A stretch of DNA of 64,000 bases from Gammaproteobacteria bacterium (GCA_029862125.1 JAOTXY010000009.1:2597-66596); one strand, 5' to 3'. Positions 1 to 14,417 are shown, counted from the first letter of the stretch. Program-made: numbers and translations. Notes: generated from the sequence alone by a model not told the origin.

Positions 1-512
1 GCAAGGCTTTCCTGCGCAGCCCGGTCGATTTTCGCCGTATCAGCTCACGCTTCAGTAACAAGCGCTGGCACCCGGTATTGTCCAAGTGGCGTTCACACAA
101 GGGTGTCGACTATGCCGCCAAACGCGGTACCCCGGTACGTGCCGCCGGTGATGGCAAGATTATCTTCGCCGGCAAGAAAGGTGGCTACGGCCGCCTCGTG
201 GTAATCCGGCATGGTGGACGTTATACCACGGCGTATGGGCATTTGAATGGTTACGCCCGGGGCACCCGCAGCGGTAAAAAGGTCAAGCAGGGCCAGATCA
301 TCGGTTATGTCGGCAGCTCGGGTGTGGCCACCGGACCGCACCTGCACTACGAATTTCGTGTCAACGGAGTACACCGTAACCCGCTAACGGTCAAGCTGCC
401 CGAAGCCAAGCCGGTTAACTCTGCTTATCTCTCCCACTTCAAAGAGAAGACCCAGGTTTATCTGTCAATGTTGCGCCTGATGGATGGCACATTGGCCGAC
501 AATTCGCAGTGA
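1..512 (+). CDS. M23 family metallopeptidase (LytM/MepM-like), C-terminal part; gene begins upstream of the window
   Basis: Open in-frame from position 3 with no upstream stop. M23 catalytic-region motifs are present: HKGVDYAA...GTPVRAAGDGKIIFAG...GPHLHYEFR. M23 peptidase directly upstream of anmK is the arrangement seen in Pseudomonas. Confidence 0.75.
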   Translation, partial: KAFLRSPVDFRRISSRFSNKRWHPVLSKWRSHKGVDYAAKRGTPVRAAGDGKIIFAGKKGGYGRLVVIRHGGRYTTAYGHLNGYARGTRSGKKVKQGQIIGYVGSSGVATGPHLHYEFRVNGVHRNPLTVKLPEAKPVNSAYLSHFKEKTQVYLSMLRLMDGTLADNSQ

Positions 513-1633
513 ATTCAAGCTCCGGCAGCGAGGTGTATGTCGGCCTGATGTCCGGCACCAGCCTCGATGGAATCGATGTCGCGATTGTCGATTTTGGAAA
601 TTCCCCCCCGCGTATAATTTATTGCCACACAACGCCATACCCGGACTCTGTACGCCAGCGCCTGCACAACCTGTGCCAGTCACCATCGACCACGCTGGAC
701 CTCCTATACGGTCTGGATGCAGAGTTGGGCGAGCTCTACGCGGAAGCCGTTAACCAGGCGTTAGAACTCGCATCCCTCGATACCGCCGGGGTTGCGGCAC
801 TGGGATGCCACGGGCAGACGATACGACATAGCCCGGATTCAGCGATGCCCTATACGGCCCAGATAGGGGACCCCAATCGTATTGCGGCGCTCACCGGAAT
901 AACCACGGTTGCAGATTTCAGGCGCAAGGATATCGCCCTGGGTGGCCAGGCGGCGCCGCTGGCACCCGCCTTTCATCGATTCCTGTTTCGATCAGGTGAC
1001 GAAAATCGTGGGCTGATCAATATCGGGGGCATCGCCAATATCAGCTACTTACCAGCCGACACCATGCAACCCGTGCTTGGCTTTGATACCGGACCCGGCA
1101 ACACTTTACTCAACTACTGGAACGAAAAGCACCAGGGGTCGGCGTTCGACGATGCGGGAACCTGGGCAAGCAGCGGCGTCGTTATCGACAGTCTGCTCGA
1201 GAAAATGATTTCCACAGAAGATTACTTTCATCTCGATCCCCCCAAGTCTACCGGCACCGAATTTTTCAACCCGAACTGGTTACTAAAATTCATAGATGAA
1301 AAATACAAGGCAAACGACGTCCAGGCCACGTTAGTCGAATTAACCGCAGTCACGATAGCCAATGCCATATCGCAATTACCGCAGCGGTTAGAGAGCATTT
1401 ATGTTTGTGGTGGAGGCGCGCACAACCATTATCTGCTCGAGCGCCTCGAAGCAAATTTCGCGCAAGGAAAGCTGGCAACAACCGAGGCACTCGGCCTGGA
1501 TCCGGATTTTGTCGAAGCAGCGGCATTTGCCTGGCTCGCACGCGAGCGTATCAACCTGCGAACCGGCAATATTCCCGAGGTAACACAGGCAAAACATGCC
1601 GGCATTCTAGGCGGTATATACGTTTCAGGCTGA
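509..1633 (+). CDS. anmK: anhydro-N-acetylmuramic acid kinase
   Basis: 374 aa. N-terminus YVGLMSGTSLDGIDVAIVDF and overall length and architecture are typical of AnmK. Start overlaps the upstream stop as ATGA. Confidence 0.9.
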   Translation: MNSSSGSEVYVGLMSGTSLDGIDVAIVDFGNSPPRIIYCHTTPYPDSVRQRLHNLCQSPSTTLDLLYGLDAELGELYAEAVNQALELASLDTAGVAALGCHGQTIRHSPDSAMPYTAQIGDPNRIAALTGITTVADFRRKDIALGGQAAPLAPAFHRFLFRSGDENRGLINIGGIANISYLPADTMQPVLGFDTGPGNTLLNYWNEKHQGSAFDDAGTWASSGVVIDSLLEKMISTEDYFHLDPPKSTGTEFFNPNWLLKFIDEKYKANDVQATLVELTAVTIANAISQLPQRLESIYVCGGGAHNHYLLERLEANFAQGKLATTEALGLDPDFVEAAAFAWLARERINLRTGNIPEVTQAKHAGILGGIYVSG

Positions 1634-1740: not shown

Positions 1741-2517
1741 ATGGGAAGATCGATGGGCGTCGCAAGGAAAGTTTTCGCAATATCAGCTTGTATATGGCTG
1801 GCGAACGGCACCGCACGGGCAGACTTTGTCGGTCTGAACATCGGCTCCAGCCAATGGGCCCCGGCTTCCTACACCTCGTTCAACAACTCTGACCCCGATA
1901 GTTTTGATGTGGTCGACGACCTGGAACTGGAAAATCCGGAACAGTCTTCGATGGTGCTTATCCTCGAGCATCCAATTACCGCGCTGCCCAATTTCAAGTA
2001 CCAGGGCTATAACCTGGATTCGTCAGACTATTCAAACTTCCCTTCGGATCTGCGTTTAAACGGAGAACCCTTGAATTCCGGTGACGGGATTACCTCCAGC
2101 ATTGATCTCACCCAGGACGATATCGTGCTCTACTACCAGCTGCCCAGCAGCAACCGGATGAATCTTGACCTGGGTGTTGATTTGAAACGCTTCGACGGCG
2201 AGATATCGCTTGACGGCACCGATAGCACCCGTGTTTTTGTTAATGAAACGATACCGCTGCTTTATCTCTCGGCACGTTACGATCTGTCCAACAGCGGTTT
2301 TTACGTTGGTGCCCATATCAATTCCAACATTATCGACCTGGGCTTAAGCAAAAGCAGCGCCCAGGACTCGACCATCATGCTGGGTTATGACTCCGGCAAC
2401 GGCCTCGGTATCGAGGGGGGCTTCAAGTATTTCTCGCTCGACCTGGACGATGTCGACCAGCCCGATGCCGATCTCGAATATGACGGCATTTACCTGAACG
2501 GTCACTTCAGCTTTTAA
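1741..2517 (+). CDS. hypothetical outer-membrane beta-barrel protein (signal peptide, C-terminal aromatic residue)
   Basis: 258 aa with an N-terminal signal-like segment (AISACIWLANGTARA). Alternating hydrophobic patterns and a C-terminus ...YLNGHFSF ending in Phe are typical of OMP beta-barrels. No recognisable family. Confidence 0.5.
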   Translation: MGRSMGVARKVFAISACIWLANGTARADFVGLNIGSSQWAPASYTSFNNSDPDSFDVVDDLELENPEQSSMVLILEHPITALPNFKYQGYNLDSSDYSNFPSDLRLNGEPLNSGDGITSSIDLTQDDIVLYYQLPSSNRMNLDLGVDLKRFDGEISLDGTDSTRVFVNETIPLLYLSARYDLSNSGFYVGAHINSNIIDLGLSKSSAQDSTIMLGYDSGNGLGIEGGFKYFSLDLDDVDQPDADLEYDGIYLNGHFSF

Positions 2518-2637
2518 TCTCCGCTGAAAATTCAGCAAAACTTCAGTTTTTAATCAGGGTTCTTTCAGGCTCTCTGCATAGCCTTTGCATTACAGGATGA
2601 CCTGTGATGACTGCACACAAGCAGAGGAGAAACTGAA

Positions 2638-3606
2638 ATGATATACCCAAAGATACCAATAATTTTTCTGGCAGCAGCGATGAGCGCGCCTACGCTGGCA
2701 ATCGCCGATGACGACGAGCTGGAGTTCGATGAGGCTTACCTGTATTTCGAGCTAAATGATACCGATGGCGATCTCGGCATTCACGGCAAGGTCGATGGCG
2801 GCCCGTGGAAAAAGGTGAAAATTGAAGGCCCCAACGACCGCACCCTGCTGAAGATCAGGGCCCGGTCCAAGCTGGCGCGCCAAGGCATGACGGAGCTGTT
2901 CTTCGAAAGTGCCGAACCTACTTTCGATGAACTGCATCCGGTGGATTTTTTCAATCGCTTCCCGGAAGGCGAGTACGAATGGGAGGGACTGACTCTCGAA
3001 TACGAGGAAATCGAAGGCGAGGTCTACCTGTCGCATGTCATGCCGGCAGCCCCGGTGGTCACCGGTGTCGGCGACCTGCTGGAGGGTGATAACCCTGGAT
3101 TTGCTATCGAGATTGAGGACGGCGAGGAAGAAGTCGCCAAACAGTGCTGGGAGGTAGAAGCCGATGATAACGGAGACGTAGTCATCTCGTGGAGGGCCGT
3201 CACAATGTCGCACAAGGATATGTGGGATGTTGATCCGCAACCTCTACTTTTAGGAGAGATCCTCCGGTATGATGAAGACGAGGAACCGGAGAGGAAATTT
3301 CCGCTGGGGGATCCAGGTTCTTTTACGGAGGATGATCTCGAATACTACGAATTTGTCGCTGAAATCGACGATACGGAATACAAATCGACTGCCGTTATTC
3401 CGCCCGGCACCACTTCATGGACGGTCCCCGCGGAAGTTATTACTCTGGCGAATGAAGAAGGAGAGGGAGAGGTCAAGTTTGAAATTATCGTCAGGGCTAA
3501 ATCCCCTGAAGTCATGGAGGACGATGGTGACCTTGTAAAATCCAAGCCCGGTAACCAGTCGGCTGTTGAAGACTGCTTCGAAATTTATGAAGAGGATGAC
3601 GAGTAG
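2638..3606 (+). CDS. hypothetical secreted, highly acidic (Asp/Glu-rich) protein
   Basis: 322 aa with signal peptide MIYPKIPIIFLAAAMSAPTLAIA. Extremely D/E-rich throughout (DDDELEFDE..., ...YEEDDE at the C-terminus). Followed by a strong terminator. Confidence 0.5.
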   Translation: MIYPKIPIIFLAAAMSAPTLAIADDDELEFDEAYLYFELNDTDGDLGIHGKVDGGPWKKVKIEGPNDRTLLKIRARSKLARQGMTELFFESAEPTFDELHPVDFFNRFPEGEYEWEGLTLEYEEIEGEVYLSHVMPAAPVVTGVGDLLEGDNPGFAIEIEDGEEEVAKQCWEVEADDNGDVVISWRAVTMSHKDMWDVDPQPLLLGEILRYDEDEEPERKFPLGDPGSFTEDDLEYYEFVAEIDDTEYKSTAVIPPGTTSWTVPAEVITLANEEGEGEVKFEIIVRAKSPEVMEDDGDLVKSKPGNQSAVEDCFEIYEEDDE

Positions 3607-3616
3607 TTATTAGCCT

Positions 3617-3650
3617 AGATCCTCTCCCGCAAGGGAGAGGATCCTTTTTT
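3617..3650 (+). terminator. rho-independent terminator
   Basis: agatcctctccc-gcaa-gggagaggatc perfect 11-12 bp stem followed by a TTTTTT run, immediately after the stop of the acidic-protein gene. Confidence 0.65.
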
Positions 3651-3666
3651 GTCTAAAATAACCGAT

Positions 3667-4461
3667 ATGAACACAATCAAGACTACAGCGTTAACGTTTA
3701 TCACAATTGTCGCATGCGTAATGCTGCTGCTGACGCCGGATTCCTACCGTGACGAGGCACTCGGCAGCATGCTGCCCACCACGCAGGAAATGGCACCGAT
3801 AAACCATCCGCAAACAGCTTTCCGTTACGAGCACAAGCAACCCGTAGCGGCCGATTTGAAGGAATCGCTACCGGTCGTTCAGAAAAAGCCTGAATCCTCA
3901 GTAACCTCGACAATTGAAACAAAGCCAGTTGACTGGGCACTGATTATGTACCCGGAGCTTGCCCGCATCGAGGCGCTGGAGAATCAATCCGTGTATACAG
4001 CACTCGGTGAGCTGTCATTGATGCTGACCAGCGACGACCCGGTGATTCGCCTGGCGGCGATTGAATCGCTCGGGGACATGACCAATCAGGCTACATTACC
4101 GGCGCTTACGGCGGCCTTGAACGACCCCAATCCGCAGTTGCGTATTGCAGCGCTCGAGGCACTGGCTGCACAGGAAGATGAATCAGCGGTGAGCAGTATC
4201 GAGCCCTACCTGTACGATGAGGACAGCAAGGTCAAGTTAGCCGCGATCGACGCACTCACCTATCTCGAGAGCGAAACCGCAGTGCCAGCTTTGGCAGGAC
4301 TCCTATCCGACCAGGATGTAAGAATCAGGCATCACGCGGTCAACGCGCTGGGTGATATTGGTGGGGAATACGCGATTTCGTATCTATTGCAGGCGCGCTA
4401 CGATCCGGACGAGCGGATCCGGGCGAACGCGGAGTCTATTCTGGGTGAACTGGAAAGTTAG
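3667..4461 (+). CDS. HEAT/PBS-lyase-like repeat protein with N-terminal membrane anchor or signal peptide
   Basis: Repeated LAAIESLGD / LRIAALEALA / VKLAAIDALTY / IRHHAVNALGDIG units are the HEAT-like repeat signature. N-terminal hydrophobic segment TALTFITIVACVMLLL. The tracked ORF begins at a TTG inside the terminator T-run; the ATG at 3667 is the more likely start. Confidence 0.6.
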   Translation: MNTIKTTALTFITIVACVMLLLTPDSYRDEALGSMLPTTQEMAPINHPQTAFRYEHKQPVAADLKESLPVVQKKPESSVTSTIETKPVDWALIMYPELARIEALENQSVYTALGELSLMLTSDDPVIRLAAIESLGDMTNQATLPALTAALNDPNPQLRIAALEALAAQEDESAVSSIEPYLYDEDSKVKLAAIDALTYLESETAVPALAGLLSDQDVRIRHHAVNALGDIGGEYAISYLLQARYDPDERIRANAESILGELES

Positions 4462-4471
4462 GAGCTGCTGG

Positions 4472-4855
4472 CTAAATCGAGAATGAAGCGCCGCAACCAC
4501 AAGTCGAGGTTGCATTCGGATTATTAACCACGAACATCGCACCTTCGAGGCCCTCGCGATAGTCGACCTCCGAACCCGCCAGTAACTGGTAGCTTTTCTG
4601 GTCGATAATCAGGGTAACGCCGTCTTTTTCAACGGTTTTATCAGCCGACTTGACTTCTTCGTCGAGCGAAAAAGTGTACTGGAAACCGGAGCAACCGCCA
4701 CCGTAGACCGAAACCCGCAGCATCAGGTCAGGATTTCCTTCCTCGGCCTGGATCGCCTTGAGTTTCTTTACCGCGGAATCGGAAAATTCAAGCATTACCT
4801 CACCGGAAGCGGGTCCCAGTGCCATGCCAAAATTCGCGTCGATGATTACTTCCAT
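4472..4855 (-). CDS. erpA: iron-sulfur cluster insertion protein ErpA (HesB/IscA family)
   Basis: GGGCSGFQY ... [12 protein letters not shown]-terminal motifs, near-identical in pattern to ErpA. True start may be the internal Met (MALGP..., giving 117 aa). Confidence 0.85.
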
Positions 4856-4905: not shown

Positions 4906-5364
4906 TCAGCTTTCTGCCACTGGTTCGGCGTTGCCGCTGTCGTGATTATTGCCATCACCCTGGTTATTGGACTTGTCCTCAAGGCGTTTTGGCAACTGTT
5001 GGCCCTGTGGCTGATGCACCAGGCCACCGTTGACTTCGGCACCGATCGCCATTTCGATCAGGTTATAGTAAACACTACCCTTGATCCTCGATTTCGGCGC
5101 CAGCTCGACGCGTGTCGACCCATAAACGTCACCGATAATCTCTCCATTGAGCACCATATTCGGTACCTTGACTTCGCCTTCGATACAACCAAATTCACTC
5201 AGTATCAAGATAGCGGTGCTACCCTGTTCGGCGATTACGTTGCCTTTGATCGTCCCATCCACATGCAAACCACCGGCAAACACAAGATCACCATTGATAA
5301 CAGTACCTTGTCCCACCAGTGTGTCGATTCGAGCAGCGCTAAACCCTTTCTTTCTACCAAACAT
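4906..5364 (-). CDS. bactofilin (CcmA-like polymer-forming cytoskeletal protein)
   Basis: 152 aa. Repetitive beta-helix pattern GDLVFAGGLHVDGTIKGNV...GCIEGEVKV...GEIIGDV typical of bactofilin (DUF583). Confidence 0.8.
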   Translation of the reverse strand: MFGRKKGFSAARIDTLVGQGTVINGDLVFAGGLHVDGTIKGNVIAEQGSTAILILSEFGCIEGEVKVPNMVLNGEIIGDVYGSTRVELAPKSRIKGSVYYNLIEMAIGAEVNGGLVHQPQGQQLPKRLEDKSNNQGDGNNHDSGNAEPVAES

Positions 5365-6090
5365 TTAAACTCCTTCGGACAACACTCGCGTCCATGATAT
5401 TGTTTCTGAGAATGATTTCACCTTCTTTGTAGTTGGTTTGATGCCTATTTCAACTTCAAAAGGCATAAAATCGTCCGGCAAAGTAATATCACCCTCAAAA
5501 ACCTGGAAGTATCGAAATGAGAACTTGGTGACTTTCTCTGAATTATCAATGGCCAAATCAGACAATTTCAACTCGCTGACACTGCCAGCTCGTTCTCCAC
5601 GGATTCGGACAATAGCACCGCCACTAATCTTTTTGGTGCTTTTGCCATTCTTGGTCAGAATCATTTTATAACTGTATTGATTCTGATTATTCTTTTTGCG
5701 CATTTCGAAAGACTGCAGGTTAACGCCTAAAGCTGCATCTTTGGGGGATACAATGCCTCGATAAAATACCAGTTCTTCTTTTTGCGCTAACAGTTCCTGC
5801 TGCAGTTTTACGAGCTCCTGGTTGGCCAGATCGTAGGCATCACGTTCGACCTTGCTACTACCGTCGAGATGTGCATTTTTTTGCAACAGGTTCTGGTTGC
5901 GACTCTGCAACTCTTCAATACGACTAATCAGGGTCTCACGCTCCAGCTCCAAATGCTCAAGTTCATAAGACTGGTATCCCCGGCCCAGGTAAAAAAACAT
6001 CGCCATCAATGCAATCAATAGCACGACGATAAGCCAAATCTTCCAGGGCTTATGCTGCCTTACCTGGAATCCTCCATGCAGGCTGCTCAT
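5365..6090 (-). CDS. hypothetical membrane-anchored coiled-coil protein
   Basis: 241 aa. One N-terminal TM helix ([20 protein letters not shown]) followed by heptad-rich [26 protein letters not shown] and related segments. Sits in the conserved erpA-argC neighbourhood. Confidence 0.5.
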
Positions 6091-11909: not shown

Positions 11910-12074
11910 AGGCTTATCTCTGAAAAAGGCGGATTATATCCGCTCCGGGGTACAGGCGTCGATGCAGATTCGATCTTTTAGCATCGCCGGAACCTGATTT
12001 TATCGATTCTAAAGCGCCTTGAATTGCTGCTAAAAAGATTTAAGGCATTCTGACGGTATGCCGATATCTTTATA

Positions 12075-14417
12075 ATGGCTGTTTTTACTCAAACCCGGCC
12101 CAACCCCACGACCTGGCTCAGGAAACTGAGGCAGATGCTGCGCTTTCGCCTCGCGCGTAAATTGTTCCTGGTCGTTTTTGCGGCCATAGTGGTGATCGAG
12201 TTTATTATTGTTTTTCCGTCGTACGGCAATTACGAGTCGTCATTGTTGGCGAATTATCGAGAGGTCGCCCGCGTCGCCGCTTCTGCGGCACTTACCCACC
12301 ATTCTCATGAGAGCATGGCGATCGCTTCAGATCTTGAAAACCTGATTGCCGCCGATCCGCGCCTAGTAGGTGCAAGTGCATTCGATGCCAGTGGAAACTC
12401 GATCGCTAGCGCGGGCGAAACCGTAGAGTTCATACCTGATGAAGAGCAGCGTATGCATGCCGACCTATCGGGTCATGCACCACGTTACGAGCTTTATTTT
12501 TCATCCACGGAACTAGGGATCGAGACCGATTTGATCTTGCGCATGAATGCCGTCCCGATCAAGAAGGATTTGAACCGATTCTTGTTTCGGATTCTTGGAC
12601 TTACCCTGATTATCTGCGCGGTCGCCGGTTCCATCGTGTTTATCTATGTTGTATTTAACCTGATATATCCGCTCGAAGAAATTCATGAAAGCCTGAAGCA
12701 GGCGAAACTCGACCCGGTACGCGCTGACGAAAACAATATTCGTCATGCACGCAAGGATGAGCTTGGCGCAACCATCGATCTGCTTAACGATGCGTTGCGA
12801 GAAATCGGTGAAAGCCATCGTTCCGATGTGGCATTTCAGGAACAGCGCCTGCATGACTTTGCCGAGTCAGGTTCCGACTGGTTTTGGGAGATGGACGAAA
12901 ATCTTTGTTTCACCTACTTTTCCGAAAGCTTTGAAGCGGTATCGGGAGTATCTCCGCAAAAACTACTGGGAAAAACGCGTGCCGAATCCGGTATACCGAA
13001 TATGCCGGTGAAAGCATTTAATGAGCATCTAAGCACACTTGAAAATCGGGAGCCATTTAGGAGTTTCATTCATCCCCGTGACAAGGATGACGGCACCAGG
13101 GTATGGCTCTCGATTAGCGGTAAGCCAGTGTTCGATGCCGATGGACGATTTCTCGGTTATCGCGGATCTGGATCCGACATCACAGTGTTGTACGAGGCTC
13201 AGCAGGAACTGGTCGAGGCCAAGGAAGATGCGGAACAGAGCAACAGGGCAAAATCAGAATTTCTCGCCATCATGAGCCATGAAATCCGCACACCGATGAA
13301 CGGTGTAATCGGGATGACCGATTTGCTGATCGACAGTGGTTTAGACGACAAGCAAAAACAGTACGCCGAGATTATCCAGGATTCAGGTACCGCGCTGCTG
13401 AGAATTATCAACGATATTCTTGACCTGTCCCGCCTCGAAGCAAGACGCATAACCCTTGAACAGGCCGAATTCGAATACTCCAGCGTGGTCACGGGGGTAA
13501 TCGATATTCTGGAACCGCAGGCCAGGGAGAAAGAACTGGTGCTCACCTACGATATCGCTCCCGAGGTACAGGCCGACTACGTTGGTGATTACGGACGATT
13601 GCGCCAGGTCATGGTCAACCTTGTCGGCAATGCAATCAAGTTTACCCAGGAAGGTACTATTTCTATCGAGGTCACACGTGTTGGCGGCGATGATCAAAAG
13701 CCCAGGCTACGTACCGAAATCAACGATACCGGGGCTGGCATTCCAGCTGGCTCGATCGCCAGGTTATTCAAAAGTTTTACCCAGGTCGATGCTTCAACCT
13801 CGCGTAAGTTCGGCGGTACTGGCCTTGGTCTTGCAATTTGTCGCAAGATCATTGAGGCCATGGGTGGTGAAATCGGAGTCTCCAGTACCGAGGGCGAAGG
13901 TAGCCAGTTCTGGTTTGAAATCTCGCTACCATGCGTCGACCCGAACGCTTATGACGAAGATCGTGACGACACCATTACGATTATCCCCGGCCAGCAGTTC
14001 AGGGCCGACAAGACAGGTGCCCAGCTGCGCATTCTGGTGGTAGACGACGTGCCTGTGAACCTGGTCGTGGTCGAGAAAATGCTGGATAGCATTGGATACC
14101 AGGTAGAATCTGTCAGCAACGGATTCGAGGCCGTCGACGCCGTTAAAGCAAAACACTATGACCTGATTTTCATGGATATCCAGATGCCTGAGATGGACGG
14201 CTATGAGGCCACGCGTCAGATTCGCGCGCTCGGTCCAGTCGCCAGTAGCATCCCGATTGTGGCGATTACTGCGAACACCCAGGATGGCGATCGAAAGGCC
14301 TGTATCGCGGCTGGCATGAATGACTATATCGCCAAACCATTTGTTAAAAAGCAACTCGCCAGGTTGCTTAATCTTTACTTTCCCCCCGCAGAACTGGGCG
14401 CCCGTAAAGCCGGTTAA
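12075..14417 (+). CDS. hybrid sensor histidine kinase/response regulator (TM-PAS-HisKA-HATPase-REC)
   Basis: 780 aa. N-terminal TM helices, HisKA H-box [19 protein letters not shown] boxes (VGNAIKFT ... [13 protein letters not shown]), C-terminal receiver [10 protein letters not shown]...[14 protein letters not shown]. Confidence 0.85.

Follow-up and report, generated by a model that had tools for sequence, protein, structure and literature searches.

The stretch of gammaproteobacterial DNA analysed here (GCA_029862125.1 JAOTXY010000009.1:2597-66596, 64,000 nucleotides, called the window below) carries three open reading frames (ORFs) on the same strand between anmK and erpA, as an earlier note on this sequence had reported, and our analysis separates them into two parts. 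The first ORF, OMP, encodes an outer-membrane protein and is a resident of this junction. The second and third, ACID and HEAT, make up a self-contained, exchangeable cassette (approximately 2531-4461) under a response-regulator-dependent promoter. On balance we consider it probable that this whole account is correct and that the cassette is an inducible envelope operon for cations or metals. The limits of the cassette as a unit and its regulation are well supported; its biochemical function we only infer, and the most likely one is envelope cation or metal handling.

The comparisons were made with 80 genome loci encoding ACID relatives, in which all ORFs were searched with hidden Markov models built from recurring neighbours. 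In Pseudomonas, anmK and erpA are presumably adjacent (PA0665/PA0666), and the earlier note had taken all three genes for a 2.8-kb insertion at this junction. The variable insert is real, but it measures about 1.95 kb in this lineage (2518-4471), because OMP is present also at 'empty' junctions. At three such loci (L081, L082, L083) the order is tyrS< M23> anmK> OMP> erpA< bactofilin< DUF6776< argC<, and OMP and erpA are separated by only about 36 nucleotides (nt). One chromosome, CP070646, holds both an empty junction (L081) and, some 180 kb away in a different context, an ACID-HEAT pair (L001), with genes for a PepSY protein and an AlgE-like porin after it.

OMP itself is an ordinary protein. 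It scores 130.4 bits against the curated cut-off of 105 for NCBIfam TIGR04219 (residues 10-258 on profile positions 2-234 of 234), and it has the signal-like N-terminal segment (...WLANGTARA/DFVGL) and the C-terminal HFSF (...GHFSF) that had been noticed before, the latter a terminal aromatic residue typical of substrates of the barrel assembly machinery; a barrel is predicted. Homologs are 253-254 amino acids (aa) long, and therefore ATG 1753 is its likely start.

The divergence of the genes points in the same direction as the empty junctions. Between the window and syntenic locus L010, identity is 98% for the M23 peptidase gene, 98% for anmK and 97% for OMP, against 73% and 45% for the N- and C-domains of ACID and 61% for HEAT. 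The C-domain of ACID in non-syntenic L001, by comparison, is 72% identical to that of the window. Expressed as distance from the window, the ACID of L001 is the second-closest at 0.26, the nearest syntenic copy (L002) stands at 0.26 as well, and that of L010 comes tenth at 0.39, while the OMP distance of L010 is only 0.04. Among syntenic loci OMP and ACID distances are uncorrelated (r=0.16); for ACID and HEAT distances the correlation is r=0.46. OMP divergence thus follows the flanks and is decoupled from that of ACID and HEAT, and empty junctions hold OMP alone. We therefore conclude that OMP is a resident of the junction in this gammaproteobacterial lineage, an ordinary TIGR04219 member outside the cassette, and that ACID and HEAT are a separate pair. 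From these comparisons, the pair appears to have been placed between OMP and erpA and later exchanged by recombination.

The earlier note had proposed that the three proteins together might form one surface or periplasmic scaffold. We regard a three-component scaffold of this kind as highly improbable, and it is largely refuted by the empty sites, where OMP occurs without ACID-HEAT. The three genes do stand side by side and in one orientation, both in the window and at no fewer than 11 related loci (L002, L006, L007, L010-L012, L015, L020, L029, L084, L085), a terminator scan found no terminator between OMP and the cassette, and ACID often lies near outer-membrane barrels of other families (30 of the 47 loci that have at least 5 kb on both sides), so that a generic partnership of ACID with barrels is conceivable. 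However, a TIGR04219 OMP is present in only about 10 of the 80 ACID loci, those sharing the anmK/erpA context, leaving about 70 with ACID-HEAT and no such OMP; OMP co-evolves with the flanks and not with ACID; and the promoter array of the cassette lies past the OMP stop codon. The note had also argued that the grouping would be coincidental if the genes were widespread singletons with unrelated neighbourhoods elsewhere. By this reasoning OMP drops out, but ACID and HEAT stay together in many unrelated neighbourhoods. Of the 72 loci whose sequence extends far enough past ACID, 54 have HEAT as the very next gene on the same strand, as do all 26 of the array-bearing loci.

We found no signs of a mobile element at the cassette, neither recombinase or transposase genes, terminal repeats nor target-site duplications; it contains no other ORFs and no notable flanking inverted or direct repeats, and no recombinase or transposase gene recurs in the 80 loci. 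The only repeat-like feature nearby is a 16-nt similarity between the 3' end of OMP and the array. The last codons and stop of OMP (2504-2519, ACTTCAGCTTTTAATC) are 94% identical to part of the array (2540-2555, ACTTCAGTTTTTAATC), 36 nt downstream; the empty sites end in ...TTCAACTTTTAA. To judge from this resemblance, microhomology between the OMP end and the array could have guided insertion of the cassette, or it could be due to chance. The cassette is a case of a regulated two-gene operon exchangeable between near-identical chromosomal backgrounds without mobile-element machinery.

The evidence for regulation lies in the 120 nt 5' of ACID, which are more conserved than the adjacent coding DNA. 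Beginning 14 nt past the OMP stop codon, four TTCAG pentamers follow one another at exact 11-bp spacing (Table 1). This array is the sole match in the 64 kb, and 0 of 100 shuffled sequences match. Of the 57 loci whose ACID start could be located, 32 have the array around -107 to -70 relative to that start; the background is 0.06 two-repeat matches in 260 nt. In these loci it immediately precedes ACID without exception, and the empty junctions have none. The TCAG cores of all four repeats are invariant in 29 of 29 sequences, and the base that precedes each repeat is in most cases C, T or A, not G. Past the array, at a fixed +11..+16, stands a TAnnnT hexamer whose A2 is present in 29/29 and whose T6 in 28/29 sequences; we propose it as the -10 element. 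It predicts a transcription start near 2591 and would put the third repeat of the array over the -35 position. The array is the putative binding site of an OmpR-family response regulator (RR).

Downstream of the putative -10 element, a 9-bp stem-loop probably forms the 5' end of the ACID mRNA. Its predicted stability is -16.8 kcal/mol (z=-4.46), which none of 200 shuffled sequences reaches. Across 15 relatives both sides have changed in 4 of the 9 pairs, with G-U intermediates; the covariation score is reached by 0 of 500 shuffles, and 87% of cells pair, versus 27-43% in slid controls. Neither the region, with its stem-loop, nor the window as a whole gave an Rfam match at or near threshold. 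It may serve as a 5'-terminal stabiliser or as a regulatory hairpin.

The strong terminator that had been described after ACID was found again as an 11-bp stem and T-run between ACID and HEAT. Its hairpin is conserved nearly base for base in 14 of 52 loci, which are the clade of the window's cassette and include the non-syntenic L001, L003-L005 and L008. Because the hairpin is shared by non-syntenic copies, the mobile unit consists of promoter array, hairpin, ACID, terminator and HEAT together.

As for the regulator, genes for a PepSY protein, an OmpR-type RR and a HAMP/HisKA histidine kinase (HK) adjoin array-bearing cassettes at many loci (L008, L009, L014, L016-L019, L022-L030, L034, L036); the PepSY gene scores 29.2 bits against a Pfam cut-off of 24. 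In Thiodiazotropha, the Olavius Gamma-3 symbiont, Ctena symbionts and several metagenome-assembled genomes, the array separates ACID from a divergently oriented pair of genes, for PepSY and an AlgE-like porin, and the RR and HK genes adjoin these. Signalling units that combine PepSY with HK and RR are widespread and have been recognised as such; their PepSY protein binds the sensor (PMC12714742). The array-linked RRs are a tight clade with 72-80% mutual identity, and the kinases share a conserved, very acidic periplasmic domain of 130 residues. The best family matches of HK and RR are the heavy-metal subfamilies CzcS/SilS/CopS and CzcR/SilR/CopR (TIGR01386/TIGR01387). Against the E. coli PhoP equivalog the RR scores 148.7 bits, well under the cut-off of 336.

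The window has a single two-component gene, a hybrid histidine kinase/response-regulator ORF (12054-14414) that is unrelated to the array-linked clade.

The tight linkage to HK, RR and PepSY genes raises the alternative that ACID and HEAT are accessories of signalling that modulate the sensor kinase from the periplasm, in the manner of PepSY/DbfQ, and are not themselves the physiological output. A scaffold that binds proteins and is tethered at the inner membrane, as HEAT is predicted to be, would be in the right place, at the sensor domain of the kinase, and periplasmic modulators of two-component systems have a precedent (PMC12714742). However, in the window and in L001 the cassette is far from any two-component system, and a strong regulated promoter with an internal terminator favours a high output of ACID, which is typical of an effector and not of a modulator needed in stoichiometric amounts. 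We consider this alternative very unlikely.

In the wider neighbourhoods of the same 47 loci, a signalling module lies within 6 kb of ACID in 32, either a two-component system (23) or a set of extracytoplasmic-function (ECF) sigma factor, FecR and TonB-dependent transducer (9). The 30 outer-membrane barrels are AlgE-like (11), TonB-dependent receptors (9), similar to the LbtU siderophore porin (5), TIGR04219 (3) or other (2).

These neighbours would also suit a role of ACID, with or without HEAT, as an accessory of iron or siderophore uptake, binding in the periplasm or at the surface for an outer-membrane channel (a TonB-dependent receptor or an LbtU-like or AlgE-like porin). In nine loci ACID is directly beside the ECF-sigma/FecR/TonB-dependent transducer sets, some His and Cys residues of ACID are invariant, iron has been linked with PepSY proteins and with systems of BqsRS type (PMC4358008, PMC13522522, PMC12714742), and one barrel, bb21, scores 89.5 bits against the LbtU siderophore porin cut-off of 90. 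Set against this, the surroundings of the cassette show no recurring Fur box, ABC importer or gene for siderophore biosynthesis, and the fold of ACID is unlike known iron- or heme-binding β-sandwiches beyond the generic immunoglobulin (Ig) topology. The TonB-linked members, moreover, are without the TTCAG array and mostly have a weak HEAT partner or none; they may have diverged in function. An iron accessory therefore seems to us unlikely, although it is the strongest of the alternatives.

A 358-aa barrel with this borderline LbtU score stands beside ACID and a two-component system at L076:9380-10456, and also in L032, L052, L071 and L073. TonB-independent siderophore porins are seldom annotated.

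ACID was described earlier as an extraordinarily Asp/Glu-rich protein with a signal peptide, and this is borne out. The signal peptide covers aa 1-23 (...APTLAIA/DDD), and the mature form has 27.2% Asp+Glu and an isoelectric point (pI) of 4.05, compared with 11-15% Asp+Glu in neighbouring proteins. The median over the ACID family is 23-26%, so that overall acidity is a trait of the family, and many Asp, Glu and His positions are invariant; E38, N40, D41, D43, D45, H49, D53, E86, E90 and E93 are among the invariant residues. The YEEDDE tail also remarked upon does exist in the window protein, but it is not conserved in the family, and neither is the acidic middle insert. The N-domain (about aa 25-139) is specific to the family and contains an invariant ELNDTDGDLGxHG motif; the C-domain (about aa 140-316) is similar to fibronectin type III (FN3) domains and includes the variable acidic insert (about aa 197-233). 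A structure model of high confidence (predicted local distance difference test 85.5, predicted template modelling score 0.82) has two β-sandwich domains resembling the FN3/Ig-like fold, with the variable segment as a low-confidence acidic loop. In Pfam, fn3 is detected in larger multidomain relatives only, and the window protein falls outside fn3 membership.

That no family could be named for these proteins holds for ACID only. It has no Pfam match at E<=0.1, no NCBIfam relative and, when its profile is compared with PDB sequences, nothing at E<=1; we found no literature on the ACID family or on the ACID-HEAT pair. An exhaustive profile search nevertheless collected about 1,370 clusters (at 50% identity) from Gammaproteobacteria, including chemosynthetic symbionts, Acidobacteriota, Planctomycetota, Myxococcota and others. 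In some relatives of 500-1,400 aa the N-domain stands together with FN3 domains and RTX calcium-binding repeats. The PADLOC defence models gave no match for OMP or ACID, and only generic HEAT-repeat matches for HEAT. Cation binding by the acidic component, which had been offered as a possibility, is retained as the most plausible reading.

Several observations on individual ACID genes may be added. The family alignment and a conserved GAGGAG at 2624-2629 place the ACID start at ATG 2638; the public annotation (P0001, 'hypothetical protein OER98_03335', 308 aa) starts 14 codons late (2638-2679) and so loses most of the signal peptide. Some genomes have tandem ACID paralogs (L015:627-2576; L032:4599-6756; L035:67-1950), and in L015 each copy has its own TTCAG array, the first with five to six repeats. 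The giant carriers of the N-domain (P0227, 1422 aa; P0258, 1132 aa; P0208; P0197) look like secreted adhesin-like proteins.

The hypervariability of the alleles had prompted a toxin-immunity reading, which we rejected: the core of ACID is highly conserved across phyla, its variable part is a disordered acidic loop, and it has no toxin domain. A secreted Ig-like adhesin or matrix component, with a variable surface under diversifying selection and with HEAT as its export or anchoring factor, is the alternative to which we give least credence. ACID has no anchoring or secretion motif beyond the Sec signal, its variable segment is a low-confidence acidic loop and not a folded surface, and the linkage to metal-type regulators and porins would be left unexplained.

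HEAT had been described as a membrane-anchored or secreted protein made almost entirely of HEAT repeats. The hydrophobic N-terminus and the repeats are there, but about five repeats of the PBS/αRep type cover only residues ~105-270; residues ~1-105 are a signal-anchor and a variable linker of about 80 aa. It is a standard protein of this type, scoring 101.2 bits for HEAT_2 (cut-off 27.7), 74.6 for HEAT (23.5) and 49 for HEAT_PBS (20.9) in Pfam. Members of the window's clade begin with a signal-anchor, other members of the family with an AxA signal peptide or a lipobox, and the N side of these segments is positively charged; family N-termini read MDTIK/MNTIK, and accordingly ATG 3667 is the likely start. 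The best matches in PDB are engineered αRep binders (E=1e-49). From its export signals and αRep-type repeats, HEAT is therefore predicted to be a periplasmic protein-binding scaffold. The envelope location suggested for all three proteins thus stands, OMP as a member of its family, ACID by its Sec signal peptide and HEAT by export signals found family-wide.

A phycobilin lyase or NblB function of HEAT was considered and rejected on the scores (NblB 59.5 bits vs 300, CpcE 32.3 vs 330, CpeY 28.5 vs 600, CpcF 23 vs 220).

The metal and cation theme of the neighbours, taken together with the conserved polyanionic character of ACID, makes an inducible periplasmic cation binder docked by HEAT the best-supported mechanism. 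An OmpR-family two-component system would sense a cation or metal signal in the envelope by means of the strongly acidic periplasmic sensor domain, and the phosphorylated regulator would bind the TTCAG array and activate the operon. ACID would then build up, either within the periplasm or on the surface of the envelope, and buffer cations by binding them; the internal terminator should make it more abundant than HEAT. HEAT might bind ACID by its repeat surface and tether it, or hand it over, at the inner membrane.

Several results weigh against the account that we favour. In the window, no cognate two-component system, PepSY gene or porin was found, and therefore the regulator is presumably encoded elsewhere in the genome. 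With PhoP of oprH-phoPQ-like loci the array-linked RRs share only 36-41% identity, HK (245.1 or 158.3 bits, cut-off 292.6) and RR (203.3, cut-off 279.2) are both below the heavy-metal thresholds, and the RExxE ([RHK]ExxE) motif is absent from the periplasmic domain of 11 array-linked HKs; the linked systems are thus orthologs of neither PhoP nor BqsS, and no particular signal can be assigned. Metagenome contigs were scanned for the bare four-repeat TTCAG pattern, and none of the 80 matches fetched among those listed had ACID downstream, so that the bare pattern is not specific at that scale; most of the matches listed were tandem repeats with an 11-bp period or had arisen by chance. HEAT is missing next to ACID at about a quarter of the loci and is thus not obligatory for the family, and the correlation of ACID and HEAT distances is only moderate. 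Part of the acidity of ACID is background, since this organism has generally acidic proteins (anmK, pI 4.8). The likeness of the NDTDGD loop to canonical DxDxDG Ca2+ sites is partial: to judge by its residues, the invariant E-L-N-D-T-D-G-D-L-G has DxDG but not the full D-x-[DN]-x-[DN]-G pattern. Fold searches with the full model and with the N-domain alone gave generic FN3/Ig-like matches only, and no characterised metal-binding protein or functional analogue.

The same metagenome scan gave two observations of separate interest. At four Pseudomonas-like oprH-phoP-phoQ loci (L127:7724-7761, L130:3173-3210, L134:1607-1644, L143:3456-3493), four TTCAG repeats precede a small outer-membrane protein starting ...NFVGLTWGETSNN, which is followed by RR and HK; with four in-register repeats, these promoters therefore have more than the published two-repeat PhoP box. 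At L108:1652-1689, in AT-rich DNA of an evidently unrelated organism, an RR-HK pair is directly preceded by the same four-repeat array and a GATAAT -10 with unchanged offset. The use of the TTCAG/11-bp box by OmpR-family regulators would thus extend far outside Gammaproteobacteria.

A bolder version, which we hold only tentatively, would make ACID-HEAT an unrecognised but widespread envelope system of several phyla. Here ACID would capture or buffer a specific divalent or trivalent cation in the periplasm and a membrane-tethered HEAT receptor would dock it, both as the output of a new PhoP/BqsR-like, PepSY-associated two-component clade acting on four TTCAG repeats, and the cassette would move and recombine between genomes as one unit with its promoter, stabiliser hairpin and attenuating terminator.

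The features of the region are collected in Table 1. On its right side, erpA is convergent with HEAT and the spacer between them is 10 nt. Beyond erpA, the bactofilin and DUF6776 genes (4906-6090) are translationally coupled, with stop and start abutting at 5364/5365; every syntenic locus has them between erpA and argC, and they look to be a conserved pair of cytoskeletal genes.

Table 1. Genes and cis-elements at the anmK-erpA junction, in window coordinates.
Feature	Position	Strand	Remarks
M23 peptidase gene, 3' part	start of window		
anmK	509-1633	+	left housekeeping flank; Pfam AnmK 433 bits; NCBIfam 475 bits, cut-off 367
OMP (ORF1)	1741-2517	+	likely start ATG 1753; NCBIfam match TIGR04219
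TTCAG array	2531-2568	+	TTCAGCAAAACTTCAGTTTTTAATCAGGGTTCTTTCAG; four pentamers at 11-bp spacing; putative OmpR-family response regulator site
-10 hexamer TAGCCT	2579-2584	+	putative; TAnnnT at fixed offset after array
9-bp stem-loop	2588-2609	+	predicted 5' end of ACID mRNA; minimum free energy and covariation
ACID (ORF2)	2638-3606	+	start ATG 2638
Intrinsic terminator between ACID and HEAT	3618-3653	+	GATCCTCTCCC-GCAA-GGGAGAGGATC then T6; dG -22.5 kcal/mol; terminator scan
HEAT (ORF3)	3649-4461	+	likely start ATG 3667 (3667-4461)
erpA	4472-4855	-	right housekeeping flank; NCBIfam ErpA 158 bits, cut-off 117
Bactofilin, DUF6776, then argC genes	beyond erpA		

With these results the ACID family, formerly 'hypothetical protein', gains a context in its HEAT partner, a defined array and a candidate PepSY/HK/RR/porin module. 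Periplasmic stress proteins under two-component control are already well known, and ACID-HEAT is a large, coherent and uncharacterised family with a clear regulatory signature. It offers a tractable system for the study of envelope cation and metal homeostasis in marine sediment and symbiotic bacteria.

Among known systems, TIGR04219 proteins have been annotated in outer-membrane and vesicle studies of Aeromonas and Photobacterium, and the OMP of the window is undistinguished within the family. HEAT has the same 31-residue repeat type as CpcE/F, NblB and the αRep scaffold; unlike CpcE/F and NblB, it is exported and membrane-tethered and has no phycobiliprotein context. SilE/PcoE with SilRS/PcoRS, and ZraP with ZraSR, are periplasmic metal 'sponge' proteins under two-component control. 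By analogy, the cassette may share their logic, in which an HK/RR pair senses the ion and switches on a charged, exported and abundant protein, which then binds it in the periplasm. There is no relation in sequence or fold, however, ACID being a folded two-domain β-sandwich and not a disordered His/Met-rich peptide or a helical protein like ZraP, and those systems have no counterpart to the HEAT partner.

BqsRS/CarSR of P. aeruginosa (bqsPQRST, with the OB-fold protein PA14_04180/CarO as an output) has in common with the cassette-linked genes a PepSY gene beside those for an OmpR-type RR and an HK, and such a module, a small PepSY beside HK and RR as in BqsRS/DbfQRS, occurs at array-bearing loci elsewhere, not in the window. 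Among the BqsR outputs, the one induced most strongly is a small protein of the periplasm that is believed to bind cations (PMC4358008, PMC12714742). The BqsR box, TTAAG-N6-TTAAG overlapping the -35 (PMC4358008; PMC13522522), shares with the array of the cassette the direct repeat of a pentamer, the 11-bp register and, as predicted for the cassette, the -35 overlap, and TTAAG variants occur within the arrays of L004, L005 and L025-L027. In contrast, the core of the cassette array is TTCAG in four or more copies and not two, the linked HKs lack RExxE, ACID and HEAT are unrelated to CarO or CarP, and the window has no adjacent two-component system.

For Pseudomonas PhoPQ and the oprH-phoP-phoQ operon, the TTCAG core and the 11-bp spacing are identical to those of the cassette. 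The P. aeruginosa PhoP box is GTTCAGNNNNNRTTCAG (PMC3156716), and against the consensus GTTCAG-N5-RTTCAG of the same work the array has the core and register four times, with mostly C, T or A at the 5' G/R position. The OMP of the window, by contrast, precedes the array and is outside its control. The further likeness to PhoPQ is one of theme, a divalent-cation response of the envelope that includes a small outer-membrane barrel (oprH).

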